In this document: positions 1 through 37,606 of the stretch, piece by piece
Layout of the letters: every line of letters starts with the position of its first letter
Numbering within the stretch: the stretch's first letter is position 1
From: Vicinamibacteria bacterium
GTDB lineage: Bacteria; Acidobacteriota; Vicinamibacteria; Marinacidobacterales; Marinacidobacteraceae
Direction: 5' to 3'
DNA length: 64,000 nucleotides
Assembly (NCBI GenBank): GCA_965199715.1
Contig: OZ241322.1
Span: 800,001 to 864,000, forward strand
The notes under the pieces: generated by a model
The model's input: the letters and a program-made list of their open reading frames with translations, nothing else
The model's database searches: none
Told to the model about the DNA's origin: nothing
Position numbers and translations under genes: made by a program

Positions 1-2618
1 TGCTCCCAGCCGGTCTGGCCGTCGAGGATCAGGCCGACGTTGTACACGAGGCTGCCGCCCTCGCCGGTGAGCATCAGGTTCCGCTCGCGCGCGATCGCGG
101 CGATCCACTGCCGCTGGTCGCGCCTCGGCTGCATGTACGACTTGATCGCGGGCGCGCCCCACGACGTGAGCCGCTCCACGTTGTCACGGGCGTCCTCGAA
201 GCTGCGGACGTCGTTCTGGCGCGAGCCGTCGCCGTTGTACATCGGGTCGCCGGTGCTGAAGGTGCGCGGCCCCACCATCTCGCCGGCCTCGATCAGCTCG
301 GCCGCCGAAAACACGTTCTGGGACCACTGCGAGTTGTCGAGCGTGGTGGTCATCCCGTAGGCGAGATAGACCGCCGACTCCCAGTTCCGCCGCGGGATCA
401 CGCCGGTGTGGTCCCGGTGGTGGTGGGCGTGCATGTCGATGAGGCCGGGGATCACGGTGCGCCCCGCCAGATCGACGACGCGGTCGCCGTCCCCGGCCTC
501 GCAGGCGCCCACGCAGGCGATCCAGCCGTCCTCGATCCGGACCGCGCCGTTCTCGATCGTCCCCTCGGGTCCGAGGGTCACGATGCGGCCTCCGGTCAGG
601 AGCAGGCCGCCGTTCGCCCGATGCCGCGGCAGCCGCAGGTCCACCTCGTAGCGCGTGGTCTCGCCGGAGTCGGGGTCGTAGGCGCTGATGCGGGGCCCGC
701 TCCCGAAATGGAGGCGGCCGTCGGCGCTCCAGCGCGGGAACATTCCGCCGTCCCGCGACAGCGTCCGCACCGGAAGCGACGGGTTCCGGCGGTCCACGTG
801 GGGCGGCTCGGCGCCGGCTCCCGGCCACGGCAGCGCGACGAGATAGACGTTGTCCCCCTCGGAGAAGGCCGCCCAGGCGCCGTCGGGCGAGGGCGCGACC
901 TCGTCGGCGAACGGGAACGTCAGATGGATGCGGCGGTCGGAGCCGTCCGCCCGCACCGACACGAGGCGCGTCACGTCCTGCCGCCGGCCGTCGCGCATCC
1001 AGGAGTCCTGCTCGGGGAAGAACAGGCGCCCCTCGGGTCCGAAGGAAGGCGCGACGATCTGTCGGCGGGGCATCAGCGGGCGCCCCGCGTTGAAGGGCCG
1101 CAGCGTCCGGGTCAGGAACGTCGCCTCGCCGCCGTCCGCCGGAATCCGCACGAGGTCGTAGTGGAGGTTCGCAGACCACGAGCGGCCCCGGGCCGGCGCG
1201 CCCTCGCCCCGAGCCGCGACGATCCCCGTCCCGTCGGGGGTCCACGCCGGGTGGAGGTACGGAGCCGCCTCGACGGAGAGCCGGGTCGGCGCGCCGCCTT
1301 CGGCCGGAACCCGCATCAGGGCCCCGACCGCGTCGTCCCACGACGCATAGGCGATCCACGCGCCGTCGGGGGAGAACGCCGGCGAGAGTTCGAAGGCGTC
1401 GTCGCCCGAGACCAGCCGCTCGGGAACGCCGTCCGGCAGGGTCATCCGGTACAGGCGGCCGGCGGCGTGGAACACGGCGGTCGTCCCGTCGGGGGAGATC
1501 GTCGGCCAGCGGATCATGCGCGCCCGGAACTCGGGCTCGCGGACGCTCAGTTCGGCCCGCGCCTGCTCCGAGACCGTGCGCCGCACCTCGGCGGTGAACG
1601 GGATCTCGGCGGTCTCGCCGGTCTCGACGTCCACCCGGACGATCCCGCCGCCCCGGGTGAGGAAGACCGCGCGGCTGTCGGGCGCCCACGAATAGCCGGG
1701 GAGCACGCGCTCCACCTTCATCCCCTCGGCGACGTCGGTCTCGATCGGGTCGGCGAGAAGCCGCTCGGCCCCGGTCGCGAGATCGCGTAGGAAGAGCGCG
1801 GTGCGCGGGCCGAAGCGATGCCCCTTGAACGAGATCGTCCCGCCCGGGATGCGCCGGGCGAAGGCGAGGAAGCGCCCGTCCGGAGACGGCTCGGGCGCGA
1901 TCGCGCCCCCGCTGGACCCCTGGTACTGCTGCTGGGCCTCTCCGGCGGTGACGTCCTCAGTCATGCCGGTGCGGAGATCGAACCGCTGGATCTGCATGCC
2001 GCCCCGGATCGGATCCCGCTCCGACGTGGGCGAGTAGTGGAAATAGAGCCCGGTCCCGTCTGGGTCGGGCGCCGGCCACGAGGCGCGGGCGCGGTCCTCG
2101 CCGAGAAGGGGAACCCCGCTGCCGCCTTCGGGATGGAAGAGGGTCAGGCCCGAGCGCCGGGGCGCGGAGAGCGTGAAGTGGCGGACGACGATCCCCTTTC
2201 CGTCGGGAAGCCACGCCGGAGTCGCCACCCGCGAGTTCCCGTCCTCGTGGACGGGCCTTGGGTCGCCGCCGTCGGCGTCCATCAGCCACAGGTTCGCCTG
2301 GCCGCCCCGGTCCGAGACGAAGGCGATCGTGGTTCCGTCGGGCGACCAGCGCGGGTGGTAGTTCACCGCCACGCCGCTGTCCTGCGTGAGGCACTCGGCG
2401 CGGCCGCCGGTCGCGGGAACCCGGTAGACGTGGCCGAGCAGGTCGAACACGAGGTTCCGCCCGTCGGGAGAGACGTCGAGGGACATCCACGTCCCCTCGG
2501 AGGTCTCGAAGGCGACCTCGTACGCGTCCCCGCGAGCGAGGGTCGGATCCCAGCCGGAGTCGTCGGTCAGCCCGCCCTGCGCCAGCAGGCCGAGCGCGAT
2601 GGTCAGTGCGAAGCTCAT
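1..2618 (-). CDS. PD40/TolB beta-propeller + amidohydrolase domain protein (3' end runs off the window)
   Basis: Own translation (absent from the ORF track because it is truncated): MSFALTIALGLLA signal peptide, 'EGTWMSLDVSPDG' and repeated 'P.WSPDG'-type motifs, metal-binding 'PGLIDMHAH'; same frame at position 1. Confidence 0.85.
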   Translation of the reverse strand, partial: MSFALTIALGLLAQGGLTDDSGWDPTLARGDAYEVAFETSEGTWMSLDVSPDGRNLVFDLLGHVYRVPATGGRAECLTQDSGVAVNYHPRWSPDGTTIAFVSDRGGQANLWLMDADGGDPRPVHEDGNSRVATPAWLPDGKGIVVRHFTLSAPRRSGLTLFHPEGGSGVPLLGEDRARASWPAPDPDGTGLYFHYSPTSERDPIRGGMQIQRFDLRTGMTEDVTAGEAQQQYQGSSGGAIAPEPSPDGRFLAFARRIPGGTISFKGHRFGPRTALFLRDLATGAERLLADPIETDVAEGMKVERVLPGYSWAPDSRAVFLTRGGGIVRVDVETGETAEIPFTAEVRRTVSEQARAELSVREPEFRARMIRWPTISPDGTTAVFHAAGRLYRMTLPDGVPERLVSGDDAFELSPAFSPDGAWIAYASWDDAVGALMRVPAEGGAPTRLSVEAAPYLHPAWTPDGTGIVAARGEGAPARGRSWSANLHYDLVRIPADGGEATFLTRTLRPFNAGRPLMPRRQIVAPSFGPEGRLFFPEQDSWMRDGRRQDVTRLVSVRADGSDRRIHLTFPFADEVAPSPDGAWAAFSEGDNVYLVALPWPGAGAEPPHVDRRNPSLPVRTLSRDGGMFPRWSADGRLHFGSGPRISAYDPDSGETTRYEVDLRLPRHRANGGLLLTGGRIVTLGPEGTIENGAVRIEDGWIACVGACEAGDGDRVVDLAGRTVIPGLIDMHAHHHRDHTGVIPRRNWESAVYLAYGMTTTLDNSQWSQNVFSAAELIEAGEMVGPRTFSTGDPMYNGDGSRQNDVRSFEDARDNVERLTSWGAPAIKSYMQPRRDQRQWIAAIARERNLMLTGEGGSLVYNVGLILDGQTGWE

Positions 2619-2650
2619 GGGCGTCACCGCGCCGCATAATACCCGCGCCC

Positions 2651-3592
2651 ATGCCCGCTCCCTTCATGGTGGAGCCGCCCGGATGGGCGGAAGCGGAGGC
2701 CGCGGCGCGCCGGCTCCGCGCGGTCTTTCCGCCGAGTCCCCTGGTCCCGGCGGACGGCCTGCTGCTGAAGTTGGAGACCCTGCTGCCGACCGGCTCGTTC
2801 AAGGTCCGGGGGATCCTCGACGCGGCGTCGCGGCTTTCCGACGAGGCGGTCGCGGCGGGGCTGCTGACCGTCTCCGCCGGCAACACGGCGCTCGCGCTTG
2901 CCTGGGCGGGACGCAGGCGGGGCGTTCCGGTCCGGTCGCTGCTCCCGGAGACGGCGCCGCGCGCGAAGGTGGAAGGGTTTCGGGCGGCGGGCGGCGAGCC
3001 GCGCCTCGTACCCGTTCCCGAGCTGTTCCGTTTCCTGAAGGAGCGCCTTTGGGAAGCGGAGCCCGAGGCGTTCGTCCACCCGTGGATCGAGCCCGCGGTC
3101 CACCGGGGGCACGCGAGCCTCGCCGTGGAGCTGCTGGAGGCCGCGCCGGACCTCGAGTCGGTGTTCATTCCGGTGGGCGGCGGCGGCCTCCTGACCGGGG
3201 TCGGCGGGGCGCTGAAGGACCGCCGCCCCGACATCCGGATCTACGCGGTCGAGCCCGCCGGATGCTGCGCGCTCCATGCGAGCCTCGAGGCCGGGCTGGC
3301 GGTGGCCGCGCCCTGCCGGACGATCTGCGACGGGGCCGCCGTTCCTTACCTCGCGGCCGAGCTCTTCCCCGCGCTTCGGCGGCTCGTGGATCGCACCGTG
3401 CTCGTTCCCGACAAGGACACGCTCCGGGCCTCGCGGCGGCTCCTGCTCGAAACGAAGATCGTGACCGAGCCGTCGGGCGCGCTCGCGGTCGCGGGAGCCC
3501 GGTCGGTTCCGGCGGCGGAGCGCGGGCGGAGCGCCGCGATCGTGACGGGAGCGAGCGTCGGCCCCGACGGAATCCGCAGGCTCCTCCCCTAG
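2651..3592 (+). CDS. PLP-dependent serine/threonine dehydratase family protein
   Basis: 'LKLETLLPTGSFKVRG' PLP-lysine motif, 'SAGN', 'PVGGGGL', 'EPSGA'; start uncertain (2651 or 2666). Confidence 0.85.
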   Translation: MPAPFMVEPPGWAEAEAAARRLRAVFPPSPLVPADGLLLKLETLLPTGSFKVRGILDAASRLSDEAVAAGLLTVSAGNTALALAWAGRRRGVPVRSLLPETAPRAKVEGFRAAGGEPRLVPVPELFRFLKERLWEAEPEAFVHPWIEPAVHRGHASLAVELLEAAPDLESVFIPVGGGGLLTGVGGALKDRRPDIRIYAVEPAGCCALHASLEAGLAVAAPCRTICDGAAVPYLAAELFPALRRLVDRTVLVPDKDTLRASRRLLLETKIVTEPSGALAVAGARSVPAAERGRSAAIVTGASVGPDGIRRLLP

Positions 3593-29696: not shown

Positions 29697-30983
29697 ATGA
29701 AGCGCATCGCCCTGTCCCTGGCGGGTCTATTCCTGCTTGCGGCGCCGCTCGGCGCCGAGACGACGGCCGACGAGGCCGCGACCATCGCGCTCGAGGCGGA
29801 AATCCGGGGCGAGATCGACTCGCTCCGCGACCGCATCGACGCCCTCGAGGAGATGCTGGTCACGCTCGTCGCGGCCCGCACCCCCGCGCCCGCTGCGCCG
29901 GCGACGGCTCCGGTCACGGCGGCCGCGCCCGCCCAGGACGAGTCGATGGGAGCGGTGCGGACCGGCGGGCAGCCGCTGTCCTTCACCGGCGTGGTGGACA
30001 CCTACTTCACCCAGAACACGAACAGTCCGGCTTCCGGCAACAACGATCTCTACTACACGAACCCGAACGCCCGGGGATTCGGGTTCAACCAGTTGAAGCT
30101 CGAGATGGAGACGACCGGCGACGGGCCGATCGGCTTCCGCAGCGACCTTTGGTTCGGTTCGGGCGCGCGCCTCTTCCGGGACGGGCTCGAGCCGGGGCCG
30201 CTCGCGGACGTGCTCTACCTCCAGCAGGCGTACGGCTACTACCGGGATTCCGGCGGCGGCCAGTTGGACGTGGGTCTGTTCGGCACCGTGGCCGGGCTCG
30301 AGGTCGCGGAGTCGCACCTCAACTGGAACTACAGCCGGGGCATCCTGTGGGCCTGGAACGAGCCGTTCTCGCACCTCGGCGCCAAGTACAGCCGCCCGGT
30401 GTCCGACACGTTCACCGGCGCCGTGCTGCTGGTCAACGGCTTCGACAACGCCTTCGACCAGAACAGCGGGAAGAGCTACGGCCTCCAGGGATCGCTCGCT
30501 CCGAGCGATGCGTTCAACACCACCCTGACGTGGATCCACGGGCCGGAGAACGAGGGGACGACGAGCGGCTGGCAGCGCGACCTGAGCTGGAACGCCTACC
30601 TCGGGATCAGCGACCGGCTGGAGACCATGGTGAACATGGACGCCATTCAGGCGGTCTCCCCGGACGGGGCGACGGCGCTCACGTGGGGACTCGGCGGCTA
30701 TCTCCGGTTCCACCTCAACGACCAGTGGCGGCTCGCCGAGCGGTTCGAGTTCATGAACGACCGCGAGGCCCGCTCCACCGGCGTCGAACAGATGCTCATG
30801 GAGAACACGATCACGCTGGAGTTCCAGCCGATCGCCGACGACGCCCGGATGCTGACCCGCTTCGAGGTGCGGCGCGACTGGTCGGACGTGGACTTCTTCG
30901 ACTGCCCGAGCTGCACCGACGGGCTCTCCAGGTCGCAGACCACGTTCACCATCGGGCTCTCGTGGGTGTTCGGTCCGAAGTAA
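29697..30983 (+). CDS. Outer-membrane beta-barrel porin-like protein with N-terminal coiled coil
   Basis: Signal peptide, 'LQQAY', 'G.EVAES..NWNYSR', amphipathic strands, C-terminal 'WVF'. Confidence 0.75.
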   Translation: MKRIALSLAGLFLLAAPLGAETTADEAATIALEAEIRGEIDSLRDRIDALEEMLVTLVAARTPAPAAPATAPVTAAAPAQDESMGAVRTGGQPLSFTGVVDTYFTQNTNSPASGNNDLYYTNPNARGFGFNQLKLEMETTGDGPIGFRSDLWFGSGARLFRDGLEPGPLADVLYLQQAYGYYRDSGGGQLDVGLFGTVAGLEVAESHLNWNYSRGILWAWNEPFSHLGAKYSRPVSDTFTGAVLLVNGFDNAFDQNSGKSYGLQGSLAPSDAFNTTLTWIHGPENEGTTSGWQRDLSWNAYLGISDRLETMVNMDAIQAVSPDGATALTWGLGGYLRFHLNDQWRLAERFEFMNDREARSTGVEQMLMENTITLEFQPIADDARMLTRFEVRRDWSDVDFFDCPSCTDGLSRSQTTFTIGLSWVFGPK

Positions 30984-30987
30984 CCGG

Positions 30988-31656
30988 TCACCCGAAGCCG
31001 CCGGTCAGGACATCGGTCACGAACCGGGCCACCTGACCGGCGACCTGCTCACGCACGGCCTCCTGAGTGCGTCCGTCGCGGTGCGCCTTCGCGACGCGGA
31101 AGCCATGGTCGGCCCCGGCGATCCGCACGACGCGCTTCCATTCGTCCCCGACCCGCTCCAGCAAGCCGGGCGGCGCGAACGGATCGCGGCCGCCACTGAG
31201 GAAGAGCGCAGGCGTCCTGATCCCGGGCAGGTGCTCGACTCGGTTCGGCGGAACGTCCGGCTTTCCGGGCGGGCGCAGCGGATAGGCGAGGAAGATCGCA
31301 CCCCGCACCGCAGGCGGCTCGGAGCTGGCGAGGACTTCCGAGACCATCCGCCCGCCGAAGGAGCGTCCGCCGAGAAAGAGCGGAGCCGGCCCGGCCAGTC
31401 CGCGAGCGACCGAAGCGATGCAGCGGGCGGCGACCGCCGGTCGATCCGGTCGGCGGCGTCCCGCCTCGGCGGCGGGCAGGTTGAACCGCACCACGCGGAA
31501 CCCGCTCCGGGCCAGCGCGAGCCCGAGCGCGACGAGTCCCGGGGTCTCCCGGTCGCCGCCCGCGCCGTGGGTGAGCGCGATCCGGGCGGCGGCGGGGCCA
31601 TCCGGCAGGTGCTCGAACGCGCTGATTCCGGCGAGCGCGAACTCGCGTCCGCTCAT
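30988..31656 (-). CDS. Alpha/beta hydrolase
   Basis: 'HGAGG', 'GGRSFGGR', 'G.RDPF', 'GADH'. Confidence 0.85.
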   Translation of the reverse strand: MSGREFALAGISAFEHLPDGPAAARIALTHGAGGDRETPGLVALGLALARSGFRVVRFNLPAAEAGRRRPDRPAVAARCIASVARGLAGPAPLFLGGRSFGGRMVSEVLASSEPPAVRGAIFLAYPLRPPGKPDVPPNRVEHLPGIRTPALFLSGGRDPFAPPGLLERVGDEWKRVVRIAGADHGFRVAKAHRDGRTQEAVREQVAGQVARFVTDVLTGGFG

Positions 31657-32429
31657 TTCCATGCGTCGGGCCTTGTGATGGATGTTCCGGGAATCGGCGA
31701 GGGAAGCTGACAGCGCCTGAGCTGGGCCCGGTGGATGTAGCGGATTCGCGTCGCGACCTCGCGTGACGGAAGCGCGGCCGGCAAGCGCCCGGGACACGCG
31801 ACCGTGATGGGCTTGCGCTCGGCGACCATGCCGATCGGCGTGACGAGATCGGTGTCGTTCGAGATCACGACCGCCTCGTCAAAACGGTCGTTCCAGAGGT
31901 CGTCCAGCAGGTACGCAGCCAGATTGACGTCCGACGCCTTCTCCTCCCGTGTTTGGAATTCGGCGACCAGGGCGTCCGGTGGGAGGGCCGTCCGGTTTGG
32001 CTTCCCTCGGGCGCCGCGGCGGGGGTGCCCACCGACGCGAAGCGTTCGGCCACGTTGCTCGTCCGGAGCGCGGACTACGTGATCTCCGGCGGGCGACACA
32101 CTCGGCGCCGGCGCATGGATCGTCTTCCCCGCCACGGGGAGATTGGTGAGCGGGCGCCAGTCTCGCTTCGCCGAGAACCGCCCCATGTGGATCGTCACTT
32201 CCGGCAGGGCGCCGAGCGCACTCAGATATGCCTGCTGGCGTCCGGGCGCTCGCGAGTCCGGATTCCCGGCGATGCGGGCCGTGAAGTACCGCACGCCCCC
32301 AACCACCGCGTCACACCAAAACAGTTCACGGGCAAGGTCCACGAGGTTCAGCCACTTGAACGGAGTGCCTCGGACCGCCCCGTAGTGCAGGTTGAACCCG
32401 TCAACGTAGACACGAACGCGCATCCCCAT
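31653..32429 (-). CDS. NYN (LabA/DUF88, PIN-fold) ribonuclease domain protein
   Basis: 'VYVDGFNL', 'YFTA', 'EEKASDVNLA', 'VISNDTDL' acidic catalytic motifs intact. Confidence 0.88.
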   Translation of the reverse strand: MGMRVRVYVDGFNLHYGAVRGTPFKWLNLVDLARELFWCDAVVGGVRYFTARIAGNPDSRAPGRQQAYLSALGALPEVTIHMGRFSAKRDWRPLTNLPVAGKTIHAPAPSVSPAGDHVVRAPDEQRGRTLRVGGHPRRGARGKPNRTALPPDALVAEFQTREEKASDVNLAAYLLDDLWNDRFDEAVVISNDTDLVTPIGMVAERKPITVACPGRLPAALPSREVATRIRYIHRAQLRRCQLPSPIPGTSITRPDAWK

Positions 32430-32469
32430 CCCGACGACTCCCGGAGCCGCACCGCAGGGCCCTCTGGAT

Positions 32470-32487
32470 TCGGCGACCGGTCGCCGA
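32470..32487. repeat. Perfect 18-bp palindrome TCGGCGACCGGTCGCCGA
   Basis: Self-complementary by inspection; lies about 40 bp upstream of the NYN start. Confidence 0.8.
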
Positions 32488-32536
32488 CGGGTGGCTACTT
32501 TTTCGAGATGGGCGCAGGAACCGGGGCGCGGTTCGT

Positions 32537-32600
32537 CCCGGAAATACGCTGGGGCCGCCCGGCTGGACGGCCCCAGTACCGACGGCGCGCCGCCGGCCGG
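32537..32600 (-). repeat. 64-bp direct repeat, copy 1 (double hairpin; candidate ncRNA)
   Basis: 58/64 identical to 32652-32715; minus-strand stems GCCGGCGG/CCGUCGGU and CUGGGGCCGUCC/GGGCGGCCCCAG. Confidence 0.85.
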
Positions 32601-32611
32601 TCAGAACATGG

Positions 32612-32639
32612 ACTCTAGCGCATCCGAGCCGCCCGTCAA
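32612..32639 (-). promoter_or_regulatory. Sigma70-like promoter TTGACG-N16-TAGAGT
   Basis: Reverse complement of actcta(32612-17)...cgtcaa(32634-39); predicted start near 32605, just before repeat copy 1. Confidence 0.65.
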
Positions 32640-32651
32640 GGAGGAAATGCG

Positions 32652-32715
32652 CCCGGAATCACGCTGGGGCGGCCCAGTTGGACGGCCCCGGTACCGACGG
32701 CGCGCCGCCGGCCGG
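32652..32715 (-). repeat. 64-bp direct repeat, copy 2
   Basis: Aligned by eye to copy 1 with 6 mismatches; 115-bp period. Confidence 0.85.
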
Positions 32716-32749
32716 AAGCCCGGCGCATCGCTCGCCTAGGCTTCCCTGA

Positions 32750-34594
32750 ATGGCCTATCGCTCGCTCGCCGCGGCCGTCGCCGACCTTGAGCGGAACCGG
32801 ATGCTCGTCCGGATTCCGAACGAGGTGGACGGCCACCTTGAAGCCGCCGAGATCCAGCGCCGGACCTACGCCGCACGCGGTCCGGCGATCCTCTTCGAGC
32901 GGGTCAAGGGATCGCCGGTTCCGTGCGTCTCCAACCTCTTCGGAACGCCGGAGCGCGCCCGCTTCCTGCTCCGGCACGGGCTTGAGAACGCCAAGGCCGC
33001 CGTGCGCTACCGGGCGAAGCCGGGCCGGGTCCTCGCCGACCTCGGCCGGCCCCGGGAGCTGCTCCGCGCCGCCAACGCGGCGGTGCACTCGCTCCCCCGC
33101 CGTCGGTTCCGACCGGCGAGTCAGGCGGTGCGGATTCCGCCGGAGGAGATTCCGGCGATCACGTCGTGGCCCGACGACGGAGGCCCGTTCATCACGCTGC
33201 CGCAGGTCTTCACCGAGGAGCCGCCCGGAGGAAAGCCGCTCCGTTCGAACCTCGGGATGTACCGGGTGCAGCTCTCCGGCAACGACTACGCCCCGGGCGA
33301 GATCGGGCTGCACTACCAGATCCACCGGGGCGTCGGGGTCCACCACACGGCGGCGCGGGAGCGCGGCGAATCGCTGCGGGTGAGCATCTTCATGGGCGGC
33401 CCGCCGGCGCACACGCTCGCCGCGATCATGCCGCTGCCGGAGGGCCTCTCCGAGCTGCTGTTCGCCGGGATGCTCGGCGGGCGGCCGTTCCGCTGGGCGC
33501 GGGACCCGGACGGCTTCCTCGTTTCGGCGGACGCCGACTTCACGATCACTGGCTGGGTGGATCCGGAGCGCACGCTCCCCGAGGGTCCGTTCGGCGACCA
33601 TCTCGGCTACTACAGCCTGACGCATCCCTTCCCGGTGCTCACGATCGGGCGCGTCCACCGCCGGAGGGACGCGATCTGGCCGTTCACGGTCGTGGGCCGG
33701 CCCCCGCAGGAGGACGCCTCGTTCGGGTCGCTCATCCACGAGATCACCGAGCCGATGGTGCCCGAGACCCTGCCCGGGGTGCATTCCGTCCACGCGGTGG
33801 ACGCCGCCGGGGTGCACCCGCTGCTGCTCGCCGTGGGCAGCGAGCGCTACGTGCCCTTCGCGGAACGGCGGCCCCGGGAGCTGTGGACCATCGCCAACGC
33901 GATCCTCGGGTTCGGGCAGTGCTCGCTCGCGAAGTACCTGTTCCTCGCCGCGAAGGAGGACGACCCGGCCCTGACCGCCTCCGACGTGCCGGCGCTCCTC
34001 GGCCACGTGCTGGAGCGCGCCGACTTCCGCACCGACCTGCACTTCCAGACCGCCACGACCATCGACACGCTCGACTACTCGGGCACGGGGCTCAACATGG
34101 GCTCCAAGCTCATCGTCGCCGGAGCCGGGCATCCGAGGCGCAAGCTCGCGAACGCGATTCCCCGCGAATACGGCGAGGCCATCCCCGAAGGGTTTCACGG
34201 CCTGCGCCTCGTGCTGCCCGGCGTCGCAGTCCTCGGCGGGCCTCCCTTCCGGGGCCGGGCCGAACGCGATCTGAGGCCGTTGTTCGAGGCGCTGGACGCG
34301 GCGCGAACCGACCTCGCCGGGATTCCGTTTCTGGTGTTGTGCGACGACCCGGGGATGGCCGCAGAAAGCCTGCGGAACCTGCTCTGGGTCGCCTTCACCC
34401 GCTCCAACCCCTCGCACGACGTCCACGGCCGCAACGCCGCCATCCGCGACAAGCACTGGTCGTGCGAGGAGCCTCTGGTGCTGGACGCCCGCCGGAAGCC
34501 CCACCACGCCCCGCCGCTGGTCGAGGATCCGGCGGTCACGCGGAAGGTGGACGCGCTCGCCGCTCCGGGAGGGCCGCTCCACGGCGTCCTGTAG
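32750..34594 (+). CDS. UbiD family decarboxylase
   Basis: 'NLGMYRVQ', 'EGPFGDHLGYY', 'GRPPQED', 'DTLDYSG'. Confidence 0.92.
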   Translation: MAYRSLAAAVADLERNRMLVRIPNEVDGHLEAAEIQRRTYAARGPAILFERVKGSPVPCVSNLFGTPERARFLLRHGLENAKAAVRYRAKPGRVLADLGRPRELLRAANAAVHSLPRRRFRPASQAVRIPPEEIPAITSWPDDGGPFITLPQVFTEEPPGGKPLRSNLGMYRVQLSGNDYAPGEIGLHYQIHRGVGVHHTAARERGESLRVSIFMGGPPAHTLAAIMPLPEGLSELLFAGMLGGRPFRWARDPDGFLVSADADFTITGWVDPERTLPEGPFGDHLGYYSLTHPFPVLTIGRVHRRRDAIWPFTVVGRPPQEDASFGSLIHEITEPMVPETLPGVHSVHAVDAAGVHPLLLAVGSERYVPFAERRPRELWTIANAILGFGQCSLAKYLFLAAKEDDPALTASDVPALLGHVLERADFRTDLHFQTATTIDTLDYSGTGLNMGSKLIVAGAGHPRRKLANAIPREYGEAIPEGFHGLRLVLPGVAVLGGPPFRGRAERDLRPLFEALDAARTDLAGIPFLVLCDDPGMAAESLRNLLWVAFTRSNPSHDVHGRNAAIRDKHWSCEEPLVLDARRKPHHAPPLVEDPAVTRKVDALAAPGGPLHGVL

Positions 34595-34687
34595 GCGCCG
34601 CGCCTCCGCACTCCGGTACGATCGGCGCCCGACTCTCGAGCGTTCCGTTCGGGATCGGTCACGCACTGTTACGGGAGGAACTCCGAC

Positions 34688-37606
34688 ATGACCAGCGCAC
34701 ACCGCTCCAGGCTTCGTGGAAATCCGCGGCGTGGCCGGCGGGGCATTTGTGCGGGGGCGGCCGTTGCGGCCGCCCTGCTGCTCGCGACTCCCGCGTTCGC
34801 CCAGTACGGGCAGATCGAGGGAACCGTCGCGGACTCCACCGGGGCCGTCCTTCCGGGCGCGACGGTCACCGCGACGAACGACGCCACCGGCGTGTCCCGT
34901 TCCGCCGTGACCGACGCGGGAGGCGGCTACCGCCTGCCGGCGCTGCTTCCCGGCGCTTGGTCGGTGACCGCCGAACTGACCGGGTTCGGCACGGTCGTCA
35001 ACCAGAGCGTCGCGCTGTCGATCCAGCAGACCATCGTCATGAACTTCGAGATGGGCCTCGCCCAGGTCGAGGAAATGGTGACCGTCACCGGCGCCGCGCC
35101 GCTTCTGGACACGCGCCGCTCCGACGTCTCGACTTCGGTCTCCGACCTCCAGATCCAGGACCTGCCGGTCGCCTCCCGGCGCTGGGTGGACCTCGCGCTG
35201 CTGACGCCGGGCACCAGCCAGGACGCCATCCGGGGCTTCTACTACCGGGGCAACGTGAACATGGGCGGCGGCGGGCGCTACTACGCCAACGGATTCATCG
35301 TGGACGGCGTGAACAACACGTGGGCCGAGATGGGCGAGGCGCGGCAGAACTTCCCCATGGACGCCATCGGCGAGTTCCAGATCACGACCAGCAACTTCAA
35401 GGCGGAGTACGGCCTCGCCACCGGCGGGCTGATGACGGTGGTGACCAAGTCGGGCACCAACAATTTCGCCGGCAGCGGGTTCTGGTTCTTCCGCGACCGG
35501 TCGCTCACCGAACTCACCTACCAGCAAAAGGAGTTCGCGGCCGACGACCCGGACTTCGAGGAGCCCGCCTACCGGCGCCACCAGTTCGGCGGCTCGCTCG
35601 GCGGCCCGATCCGGGAGGATCGCACCCACTTCTTCTTCGCCTACGAGCGGACCAACGAGGAGCTCTTCTACGACATCTCCACCGGCGGCGTGTTCCCCGA
35701 GCACGAGGGCACGTTCCCGAAGGACGAGTGGCGCTACATGTGGCTCGCCCGGATCAACCATCAGGTGAACGAGGACCACTCGGTCTGGCTGCGCGTCGCG
35801 TGGGAGAACGAGTATCGGCCGAACCTCAACGCCCGCGGGATCACCACCGAGGGATTCGACTTCGCCGTGCCCCGCAACGCGGAGGTCGTCGGATGGACGT
35901 GGGTGGCCGGCGAGGACGCCCTGAACGAGTTCCGCTTCCAGCGGGCGTTCTCCAAGTACGAGGTCAGCCCGGCGTTCAGCGCCGGCTCCTACGACGCGGG
36001 CGACTTCAGCGACGAGCGGCTGGGCCTGTGCGACGTGAACATCCGTCGCCCGAACCTCCGAACCGGCTCCTGCAACGACCAGATGGGCCCCGAGTACCGC
36101 TGGCAGTTCAAGGACGACCTGACCCTGTTCCGGCAGGGGTTCGGCGGAACCCACCAGCTCAAGCTCGGCTTCGACTACAACTGGATCGACTTCTCCGCGG
36201 ACATCGTGAACAACTACGCGGGGACGTTCACCTTCGACACGAACGCGCCCTTCGACACGAACGACCCGGACACCTACCCGATCCAGTACTCCCAGTCGCA
36301 GCCGCGCTACGACGAGGTGCCCGTCCACCACTTCTCGGTGTACGCGCAGGACGACTGGGTGAGCGACCGGCTCACCCTGAACCTCGGACTCCGCTACGAC
36401 CTCCAGTCGGGCACGTTCAACGAGGACATCACCTCGATCCAGTTCCCGATCCCGGTGCCCTTCCACGACGGGGCCGACCGCCGCGGCGACCTGAACAACC
36501 TGGGTCCCCGCATCGGGTTCGTCTATGACCTTTCGCGCGAGGGGACCGGGCGCACGACGGTGAAGGGCGGCTACGGCAAGTTCTTCGAGAACATCCGGAC
36601 GCTGACCAACTTCGGCGAGCGGTGGTGGCACCAGGCCTCGACGATCATCATCAACGACCCGGACTTCCTCGACCCGCTCGGCGGCCGTTCCCGCGAGGAG
36701 TACCTCTCGACCGCGGCTCCCAACATCACGATCCTCGACAACGACTACGAGCAGCCGTACGCCCACCACTTCAACGTGGGCGTGGCCCATCAACTGGGCG
36801 AGACCGCCGCGCTGTCGCTGGACCTGACCCGGGTCATGACCCGCGCCGACGCGATGCGACGCGTGAACCTCAACTACGCCATCGACGGCGTGCGTCCGTA
36901 TCCGCAGTTCCGCCGGGTGGACGCCACGTACTCGCTGCTCGACCACGACTACTCGGCGTTCTACGCCAAGTTCGAGAAGCGGTACTCCGACAACTGGCAG
37001 TTCCTCGTGAGCTACACGCTCGCCAAGTCGGACTCGACCGAGCTGTGGACCCGCAACACGAACCCGAGCGGCTGGCATCCGGAGTTCCCGGGGTACACCG
37101 AGGTGACCCGCCCCGGCGACACCGACCGCCGGCATCGGCTCGTGTCCAGCGGCATCCTCACGCTTCCGGGCGACATCCGGCTCTCGGCGATCCTCGACTA
37201 CCGCTCGCCGCTTCCGGTGCGGGTGGACTCGGGAACCAACCTGAACGGCGACGACTACGGCGGCGACCTCGCTCCGGGGTTCTCCGCGGACAACGCCTAC
37301 GGCTGCCGCAACCTCGACCTCTCGGCGGCGAACGCCTATCGGCAGTCCATCGGGCAGGCGGCGGCCAGCGGCTTCGAGTGCTCCAACTTCCTGAACGTGG
37401 ACTTCCGCGCCTCGTGGGGCATGTATCTCGGGATCCACCGCTTCGAGGTGGTGGCGCAGGCGCTGAACGTGTTCGACCGGGCGAACTTCGACACGCCGGT
37501 CGGCAACCTGCGTTCCGGGAGCTTCGGCGAGAACGACCTGTCGCTGGCCTCGAACATCAACGCGCCGTCCCGCCAGTTCGAGCTGGCGCTGCGCTACTCG
37601 TTCTGA
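34688..37606 (+). CDS. TonB-dependent receptor (Oar-like, carboxypeptidase-regulatory N-domain)
   Basis: 'G.VADSTGAVLPGATV', 'DAIGEF', 'TKSGTN', 'LNLGLRYD', C-terminal 'RYSF'; GGAGG SD. Confidence 0.92.
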   Translation: MTSAHRSRLRGNPRRGRRGICAGAAVAAALLLATPAFAQYGQIEGTVADSTGAVLPGATVTATNDATGVSRSAVTDAGGGYRLPALLPGAWSVTAELTGFGTVVNQSVALSIQQTIVMNFEMGLAQVEEMVTVTGAAPLLDTRRSDVSTSVSDLQIQDLPVASRRWVDLALLTPGTSQDAIRGFYYRGNVNMGGGGRYYANGFIVDGVNNTWAEMGEARQNFPMDAIGEFQITTSNFKAEYGLATGGLMTVVTKSGTNNFAGSGFWFFRDRSLTELTYQQKEFAADDPDFEEPAYRRHQFGGSLGGPIREDRTHFFFAYERTNEELFYDISTGGVFPEHEGTFPKDEWRYMWLARINHQVNEDHSVWLRVAWENEYRPNLNARGITTEGFDFAVPRNAEVVGWTWVAGEDALNEFRFQRAFSKYEVSPAFSAGSYDAGDFSDERLGLCDVNIRRPNLRTGSCNDQMGPEYRWQFKDDLTLFRQGFGGTHQLKLGFDYNWIDFSADIVNNYAGTFTFDTNAPFDTNDPDTYPIQYSQSQPRYDEVPVHHFSVYAQDDWVSDRLTLNLGLRYDLQSGTFNEDITSIQFPIPVPFHDGADRRGDLNNLGPRIGFVYDLSREGTGRTTVKGGYGKFFENIRTLTNFGERWWHQASTIIINDPDFLDPLGGRSREEYLSTAAPNITILDNDYEQPYAHHFNVGVAHQLGETAALSLDLTRVMTRADAMRRVNLNYAIDGVRPYPQFRRVDATYSLLDHDYSAFYAKFEKRYSDNWQFLVSYTLAKSDSTELWTRNTNPSGWHPEFPGYTEVTRPGDTDRRHRLVSSGILTLPGDIRLSAILDYRSPLPVRVDSGTNLNGDDYGGDLAPGFSADNAYGCRNLDLSAANAYRQSIGQAAASGFECSNFLNVDFRASWGMYLGIHRFEVVAQALNVFDRANFDTPVGNLRSGSFGENDLSLASNINAPSRQFELALRYSF

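Follow-up and report, generated by a model that had tools for sequence, protein, structure and literature searches.

A conserved two-hairpin leader RNA linked to a mobile family of NYN nuclease genes: a candidate type III-like RNA antitoxin

A NYN gene preceded by three leader units

We analysed a window of 64,000 nucleotides from the genome of a Vicinamibacteria bacterium (assembly GCA_965199715.1, contig OZ241322.1, positions 800,001 to 864,000), in which a gene for a NYN-domain nuclease is preceded, on the minus strand, by a repeated and structured element that we call the leader. The features of the locus are collected in Table 1; coordinates are those of the window. A previous, sequence-only reading of this DNA had described two direct repeats with a promoter between them, the first copy folding into two adjacent GC-rich hairpins, and had proposed that repeat and nuclease form an RNA-antitoxin module analogous to type III systems. 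The repeats were readily recovered: the two 64-nt copies, at 32537-32600 and 32652-32715, are identical at 58 of 64 positions (91%), with a period of 115 bp from start to start.

Table 1. Features of the NYN locus (positions in the window)
Feature	Position	Strand	Basis
NYN-domain nuclease gene, HEC-09-type long form	31653..32429	-	Open reading frame (ORF), 258 amino acids
Proximal degenerate leader unit	32423..32508	-	R1 16.3 bits, E 1.7e-4 in 3-kb search
Middle leader unit (holds copy 1 of the sequence-only reading)	32531..32617	-	R1 71.5 bits, E 1e-20
Sigma-70-like promoter, TTGACG-16-TAGAGT	32612..32639	-	Promoter scan
Upstream leader unit (holds copy 2 of the sequence-only reading)	32646..32732	-	R1 53.9 bits
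Inserted cassette, NYN and three leader units (approximate extent)	31656..32725	.	blastn, and junctions against G001 and G003
Alpha/beta-hydrolase gene (flank)	30988..31662	-	Pfam Abhydrolase_11, E 2.5e-34
UbiD-family decarboxylase gene (flank), divergent from NYN	32750..34594	+	Pfam UbiD, UbiD_C, UbiD_N

The two copies belong to a set of three whole units of approximately 110-115 nt, which were delimited with R1, a covariance model built from 29 leader sequences. The proximal unit abuts the NYN start, the canonical leader position in homologues; the three-unit alignment shows its hairpin 1 mostly intact, its hairpin 2 broken and no U-tract. In the middle unit all 20 model pairs are formed, with hairpin 1 at about 32578-32597, hairpin 2 at 32549-32576, and a weak U-run as tail. 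In the upstream unit two pairs of hairpin 2 are mismatched and a separate -10 element is lacking, so that only the middle unit keeps both the promoter and perfect stems. Both GC-rich hairpins described for copy 1 form; in copy 2, two positions of hairpin 2 do not pair. Where the two copies differ from the leaders of homologues, with which both align, the changes compensate each other. Possibly the proximal leader was the original one and decayed, its role passing to a duplicated unit upstream.

The promoter placed between the copies was the sole site of its kind in the interval 32300-32900 (1, versus a mean of 0.0 in 50 shuffles). Its -10 hexamer, TAGAGT, ends 14 nt before hairpin 1, with a predicted transcription start near 32605. 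This prediction is supported by the other members of the family, in which the modal distance is 13-14 nt (see below). Folding of the 330-nt minus-strand RNA gave -193.4 kcal/mol (z = -3.94, with none of 100 shuffles as low), versus z = -0.71 for the plus strand. The repeat was then mapped over the whole genome of 2,656,567 bases (2.66 Mb), as the sequence-only reading had suggested, its refuting case being a dispersed element of the repetitive extragenic palindrome (REP) or miniature inverted-repeat transposable element (MITE) kind. It was found at the NYN locus only: no other copy was present in the genome, the 191-nt query matching itself and its 40 other matches scoring at most 35.6 bits, and R1 gave no full-length match in this genome outside the NYN locus. 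The unique promoter-like site, the strand-specific fold and the single genomic locus together show that the repeats are real and not a product of chance.

Sequences from RNA libraries were also inspected. Between 37 and 57% of the sampled words were present in four metatranscriptome runs, all from one study. Contigs from RNA libraries over 31000-34000 were short, with a depth of about 2-6 across all genes, and one contig of 743 nt spans the divergent genes. They were dropped as evidence of expression, since they give no RNA start, end, strand or level, and carry-over of DNA is possible. In the Logan contigs of two RNA-library runs from one study, two G>A changes were seen, at 32584 and 32587, at a depth of about 5-6. 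On the NYN strand this pair of changes turns the loop of hairpin 1 into the family consensus CGUG and one G-C pair into G·U. As pairing is left intact, the structure appears to be kept in a co-occurring strain.

The leader is conserved upstream of NYN genes in many phyla

The best 80 of at least 580 confirmed relatives, in reference genomes spanning many phyla, supplied the homologous NYN loci for comparison. When these loci were scanned with R1 (match threshold E ≤ 1), 69 of the 80 had a full-length match on the sense strand, ending at the NYN start. Seven of the 11 that were missed carry a second sequence variant, type B, in which the architecture is unchanged and the loop is UUCG. Among the others, L115 holds a gene fragment, L128 has two hairpins as judged by eye, and nothing clear was seen in L136 and L137. 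Plain blastn with repeat copy 1 detected weak matches at -75 to -3 from the NYN start in about ten loci. The order of elements in the leader is promoter, short tail ending in ACCC, hairpin 1 of 8 bp, linker of 1-4 nt, GC-rich hairpin 2, U-run (in most homologues, where it makes hairpin 2 resemble an intrinsic terminator), ribosome-binding site and start codon. The apex of hairpin 1 is nearly invariant, the loop being CGUG in one variant and UUCG in the other.

Covariation was measured on the 54 strongest R1 matches, in an alignment fitted to the model. Pairing was found in 98.1% of 1063 cells, versus 86.7% in shuffles, none of 500 of which reached the observed value. Two-sided changes occur in 17 of the 20 pairs, and slid controls gave at most 49.5%. 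With a MAFFT alignment made independently of the structure, two-sided changes were still found in 13 of 20 pairs, and in type B they affect 13 of the 15 predicted pairs. G·U cells, 117 of the 1063, permit a test of the strand: pairing amounts to 98.1% on the sense strand and 88.1% on the antisense strand. Because the G·U cells pair on the sense strand, the folded molecule is the NYN-sense strand, and most simply an RNA.

The upstream regions of homologous NYN genes, which the sequence-only reading had pointed to as a check, carry the same structured element, with strong covariation. Far from being a local oddity, the repeat is a 5' leader specific to one widespread family of NYN genes. We regard the structural part of the proposal, namely a conserved RNA linked to NYN, as very probably correct.

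Two further pairings of the leader were considered. In many of 50 leaders folded for minimum free energy (MFE), the ACCC tail pairs with the G-rich ribosome-binding region (the cases were uncounted, and for several loci the start codon assigned in this folding was wrong). For pairing of this tail with the 5' arm of hairpin 2, which would make an antiterminator, no consistent covariation was seen by eye in the alignment.

Promoter and terminator signals

In 49 of the 69 loci hairpin 1 is preceded by a TANNNT hexamer at 6-18 nt, with a modal distance of 13-14 nt, and 37 of these 49 also have a -35 element with at least 4 of 6 matches. The promoter of L087 has 11 of 12 consensus matches and runs straight into the element. 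At the other end, the 9 nt that follow hairpin 2 contain a median of 5 T; 45 of 69 loci have 5 T or more there. A separate terminator scan identified hairpin 2 of L062 as a terminator. Since the 10-25 nt that precede the NYN start leave no room for a promoter, NYN is probably made only by read-through.

The NYN protein of the window and its family

The protein encoded in the window matches Pfam NYN (PF01936) with 21 bits and an E value of 5e-4, below the curated cut-off of 24.2, and it has no match in NCBIfam. All 25 aligned members of its family match Pfam NYN at E ≤ 0.001, the best at 1.5e-8. The family is large and well conserved, comprising 1414 proteins at E ≤ 1e-5 among 6348 candidates, the nearest being 57% identical. 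D10, N13, E162-E163-K164, S166-D167 and N191-D192-T193-D194 are invariant in the 25 sequences. An AlphaFold model (mean pLDDT 69.3, with low confidence at residues 86-163) was compared with known structures by Foldseek. The best match was the LabA-like protein 2qip (E 1.4e-6, TM 0.74 on the target), followed by the NYN domains of MARF1 (5yaa and 6fdl, TM 0.70 and 0.66). Conserved acidic active-site residues (D10, D167, D192 and D194, all invariant) and a NYN/PIN-like fold are therefore both present. Finally, the PADLOC profile HEC-09 matches the protein with 129.1 bits (E 4.1e-38), in two stretches. Despite its sub-threshold Pfam score, the protein is firmly placed in the NYN family. The consensus start of the family suggests that translation may in fact begin at the ATG at 32423.

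Members of the long-form clade share a conserved insert of about 75 residues (86-163 in the window protein), with for instance a W-R-P-L-x-N-L-P-V-A motif. No structural match was found for this insert, whose model is of low confidence; a role in RNA binding is a guess.

Leader and NYN gene travel together

Whether a leader is of type A or B follows the NYN protein tree. This tree came from a quick IQ-TREE search on 74 proteins, omitting L078, L084, L108, L109, L115, L124 and L131, in which fewer than 170 amino acids are open from the match start. Leader types were set on it by a crude regular expression, by which L105 was mislabelled A. Type A requires 4 changes on the tree, versus 24.4 in shuffles, and phyla are mixed at short distances. 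Given this agreement of RNA type with the NYN tree and the intermixing of phyla, the leader-NYN pair appears to be inherited and transferred as a unit.

Five complete genomes have one leader locus each, at NYN. Genome G053 has five strong leader copies, three of them within 4.5 kb (L162, G053:C5:2543000-2553500). One of these three precedes a decayed NYN fragment, one a NYN gene interrupted by a transposase, and the third lies about 580 nt before an unrelated ORF of 294 amino acids. At L074, an orphan leader copy near an intact NYN gene abuts a transposase-like gene. Among the 80 loci no protein neighbour is conserved; only a tyrosine integrase recurs, beside NYN in 6 of them, and the four that were checked with Pfam are all integrases. 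Taken together, the comparisons indicate that NYN and its leader are a self-contained, horizontally mobile module of two parts, whose hosts range from bacteria of soil and sea to small plasmids of E. coli.

At one locus a second type-B leader copy (L104:2177-2258) is followed by an ORF of 23 codons rather than by NYN, and then by an ORF of 65 amino acids and a protein of 203 amino acids with a Fic-type motif (2472-3277). There, the type-B leader may occasionally serve other toxin-like genes, or the NYN gene may have been replaced.

The cassette of the window is itself an insertion. The hydrolase and UbiD genes diverge from each other in the sister genomes G001 and G003, with about 50 nt between their starts, versus 1.07 kb here. 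Searches of 3 genomes from the same genus and 24 from the same family yielded no copy of the NYN gene, and among 16 others from the order only 2 had one. Its GC content at third codon positions (GC3) is 0.79, and that of the neighbouring genes 0.85 and 0.92. Judged against the two sister genomes, the whole 1.07-kb cassette is an insertion, in all appearance acquired horizontally. The hydrolase start overlaps the NYN stop, so that NYN is now followed by the hydrolase gene on the same strand.

Small plasmids and a repeat array in E. coli

The NYN family was found on 133 plasmid records and in one prophage. On plasmids of 3.4-4.6 kb, NYN is one of only three to six genes. The 4609-bp E. coli plasmid NZ_CP075066.1 carries, in this order, a promoter-like site, 3.5 tandem repeats of 33 nt, a terminator, a ribosome-binding site and NYN. 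Each 33-nt repeat is a stem resembling hairpin 1, with a CGUG loop, and the intrinsic terminator, which spans the origin of the record, is clean. This array region is shared by 17 near-identical 4.6-kb E. coli plasmids. Upstream regions from ten loci were folded and their terminators judged by reading; clear ones were seen in L172, L174, L175, L178, L179 and L180. By the same reading, a hairpin and a terminator precede NYN on plasmids of Leptospira, Xanthomonas, Thiothrix, Pseudomonas and Roseateles and on a second type of E. coli plasmid, and the copy on a Granulicella plasmid is an R1 match.

Some plasmid loci have features of their own. L180:1495-2472 and L179:1474-2430 encode longer homologues of about 320 amino acids, annotated as 'antitoxin Xre/MbcA/ParS toxin-binding domain-containing protein' or as a nicotine-pathway monooxygenase (nicB); they could be NYN fusions, or the names could be wrong. 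On a 3461-bp E. coli plasmid, the NYN promoter is immediately preceded by a perfect inverted repeat of about 33 bp (L171:1175-1245). The only other genes annotated on this plasmid encode a helix-turn-helix protein and an antitoxin of the VbhA family.

Comparison with known systems

Type III toxin-antitoxin systems (ToxIN, CptIN, TenpIN) consist of one promoter, a non-coding RNA, an intrinsic terminator and an endoribonuclease gene, all on the same strand. The NYN module is likewise small and without a protein partner, has the RNA before the RNase gene, and occurs on plasmids and islands. Its RNA lies directly upstream of NYN on the same strand (69 of 80 loci by R1 and the 7 of type B), behind a promoter-like -10 at a fixed distance in 49 of 69, and a terminator-like hairpin separates RNA from ORF (45 of 69 with at least 5 T; the U-run is weak in the window). 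One E. coli plasmid lineage even has, like ToxIN, an array, with its 3.5 repeats of 33 nt. The module differs from type III systems in two respects. The nuclease has a NYN fold (2qip, 5yaa, 6fdl) and not that of ToxN/AbiQ, and the RNA is a single two-hairpin unit nearly everywhere, the exceptions being the array of the E. coli lineage and the triplication in the window. Because the ToxN fold and arrays as a rule are both missing, we file the module as working like type III systems and not as a member of them.

Nuclease genes with a structured leader are known in another context: the leaders of E. coli rnc, rne and pnp, and the stem-loop of Regnase-1 mRNA, are structured elements in the nuclease's own transcript. 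Similarly, the NYN nuclease could recognise a structure in its own transcript. Unlike these elements, as far as they are known, the NYN leader ends in a terminator-like hairpin directly before the ORF and travels with its gene between phyla as a cassette. We know of no tandem arrays among leaders of the rnc, rne, pnp and Regnase-1 type.

The protein family itself has been described as HEC-09 (PADLOC PDLC04163), a defence candidate embedded in Hma, with a MARF1-like NYN domain and conserved aspartates, in a preprint (Payne et al. 2024, 10.1101/2024.01.29.577857). By profile, the window protein belongs to the same family. It differs by its insert of about 75 residues, owing to which the 203-position profile matches in two stretches, and by its location between a hydrolase and a UbiD decarboxylase gene, outside any defence system. 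A word search of that preprint gave 0 occurrences of 'non-coding' and of 'ncRNA' (10.1101/2024.01.29.577857), and hence, to the extent of this search, no description of the upstream RNA.

The RNA has no counterpart in Rfam 15, which gave no match at E ≤ 1 in the window interval 30000-35000 and none at the gathering score in 10 homologous loci. One locus matched the small RNA BjrC68 (RF02353) with 21.7 bits, for a gathering score of 39. This identity was rejected: the one genuine BjrC68 copy in the 121 Hyphomicrobiales genomes searched has no NYN in its 3-kb locus and follows the end of another gene. Our literature searches on NYN-linked RNA (as type III antitoxin, upstream RNA motif, terminator or phage-defence non-coding RNA) found no description of it. 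NYN, DUF88 and LabA occur 0 times in the main text of a catalogue of 224 motifs (PMC5737381), whose supplementary motif tables could hold the motif.

An antitoxin-like role for the leader RNA

The mechanism that we propose is the following. Transcription would start near 32605 in the window. In typical members, most transcripts would stop at hairpin 2 and yield an abundant RNA of about 60-65 nt. With NYN mRNA coming from read-through only, this RNA should far exceed the protein. Hairpin 1 would be the specific recognition element for the NYN protein, and the RNA would restrain the nuclease in the manner of an antitoxin. Were the RNA supply to fail, for example upon shut-off of transcription by a phage or loss of the plasmid, the nuclease would be freed.

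By analogy, the RNA would then have an antitoxin-like role, the pair working like a type III toxin-antitoxin or abortive-infection system, and we give this reading a little less than an even chance. We favour it because of the strong promoter that runs into a terminator, the array in E. coli, the triplication in the window, the leaders that remain beside dead NYN genes, and the very small size of the plasmids. More tentatively still, NYN and its small RNA may constitute a new and very widespread family of type III-like RNA-antitoxin or abortive-infection systems, with a nuclease fold that is new there. Hairpin 1 would neutralise the nuclease, whether single, in a 33-nt array or in triplicate; the terminator would set the ratio of RNA to protein; and the cassette would spread between phyla and insert at gene starts.

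Several observations weigh against an antitoxin role. Linkage, covariation and co-inheritance are equally expected of a leader that acts purely in cis. The nuclease fold is NYN and not ToxN. No array was found within 500 nt upstream of NYN at any of the 80 loci, so that the RNA is single-copy nearly everywhere; as the only array is that of one E. coli plasmid lineage, arrays are lineage-specific. In the window, U-runs are weak in all three units, the proximal unit is decayed and the upstream one is promoterless. The hydrolase gene must moreover be transcribed through NYN, which argues against tight termination at this locus, where termination may have been relaxed for that reason. Finally, in the one published test of HEC-09, a clone that included the native promoter region protected against none of the phages tried (10.1101/2024.01.29.577857). 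The type III-like idea of the sequence-only reading has thus gained a promoter-RNA-terminator-RNase layout repeated across phyla and one array; what speaks against it is an RNA that is usually single-copy, a non-ToxN fold, and copies in the window that are not equivalent.

The best-placed alternative is an autoregulatory leader acting purely in cis, by which NYN binds or cuts its own hairpin 1, or modulates termination at hairpin 2, with no role of the RNA in trans. The element always lies in cis, right before the ribosome-binding site, and is mostly single-copy; a terminator-like hairpin stands between promoter and ORF, and the ACCC tail meets the ribosome-binding region in many of the 50 MFE folds (uncounted), all of which such a leader would explain well. 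The E. coli array of hairpin 1 and the triplication in the window are harder to account for in this way. In addition, a strong promoter that leads straight into a terminator, as in L087 (11/12), suggests that the short RNA is itself a product, and leader copies persist beside dead NYN genes. We consider this explanation rather unlikely, while taking it seriously.

Another alternative reduces the leader to a lock. Hairpin 2 would silence NYN until a phage or stress causes read-through, by an antiterminator or an altered RNA polymerase; hairpin 1 would be a sensor, and the NYN protein would be blind to the RNA. Such a lock would agree with the terminator-like hairpin that immediately precedes the ORF on chromosomes and plasmids alike, and with the standing of the family as a published defence candidate embedded in defence systems. 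The type of hairpin 1, however, tracks the NYN clade across phyla, a pattern more in keeping with recognition by the cognate protein than by factors of the host or phage, which vary from phylum to phylum, and the alternative antiterminator pairing was without covariation in the alignment, as judged by eye. We hold the lock to be improbable.

A still weaker case can be made for an element acting as DNA, in which the palindromes would be an operator, a recombination site or single-stranded DNA hairpins for mobility of the cassette. Insertion of the cassette exactly at a gene start and integrase neighbours at 6 of 80 loci would suit it. It is nevertheless very improbable, given that 117 of 1063 pair cells are G·U and pair only on the NYN sense strand, that the element is preceded by a promoter at constant spacing and followed by a U-run, and that the leader is inside the cassette and not at its ends. 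The notion of a functionless local duplication or of a REP/MITE-like repeat unrelated to NYN, which has in its favour the upstream unit, promoterless and with two mismatches, has a negligible probability: the element is single-locus in the genome and conserved with covariation upstream of NYN across phyla, so that this reading is refuted for the element as a whole and possible only for the extra upstream copy.

Returning to the antitoxin-like role, if the RNA is the partner of the nuclease, it represents a class of structured RNA absent from Rfam 15 and present in at least 10 phyla and on more than 100 sequenced plasmids. RNA-antitoxin systems would then extend to NYN, the fold of the eukaryotic MARF1 and Regnase-type RNases. 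The lack of phenotype of HEC-09 might, hypothetically, be due to the terminator that lies between native promoter and ORF. The 4.6-kb E. coli plasmids, with promoter, repeats, terminator and NYN, are a ready test system. Should the leader act in cis only, it would still be a clean attenuator, conserved widely and carried along by a mobile nuclease gene.

The UbiD gene and the insertion site

Orthologues of the UbiD gene, which diverges from NYN, are 74-85% identical in all five relatives searched. The repeat region of the window aligns at none of these relatives' five UbiD loci, and inspection of the sequences upstream of UbiD in G001, G002, G003 and G008 revealed no repeat. A role of the repeats as regulators of UbiD was rejected, the UbiD loci of relatives being without the element and the G·U pairs fitting the NYN strand only. 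A 14-nt similarity between 32728-32741 and 32762-32775 was considered as a target-site duplication, and is better explained as the ancestral upstream region of UbiD. A TAnnnT hexamer was seen by eye 8-12 nt before the UbiD start, in the window (32725-32749) and in four relatives (L035, L036, L037 and L038), which suggests that the UbiD mRNA has a very short leader or none.

In G002 (L036:1022-1369, plus strand) the same hydrolase/UbiD intergenic site is occupied by a different insert, of about 580 bp. It encodes a truncated NYN domain that belongs to a different subfamily, matches PF01936 with 46.6 bits over profile positions 60-131 only, points the opposite way and has no leader. NYN cassettes may insert preferentially at this site, or the G002 fragment may be what is left of an older one.

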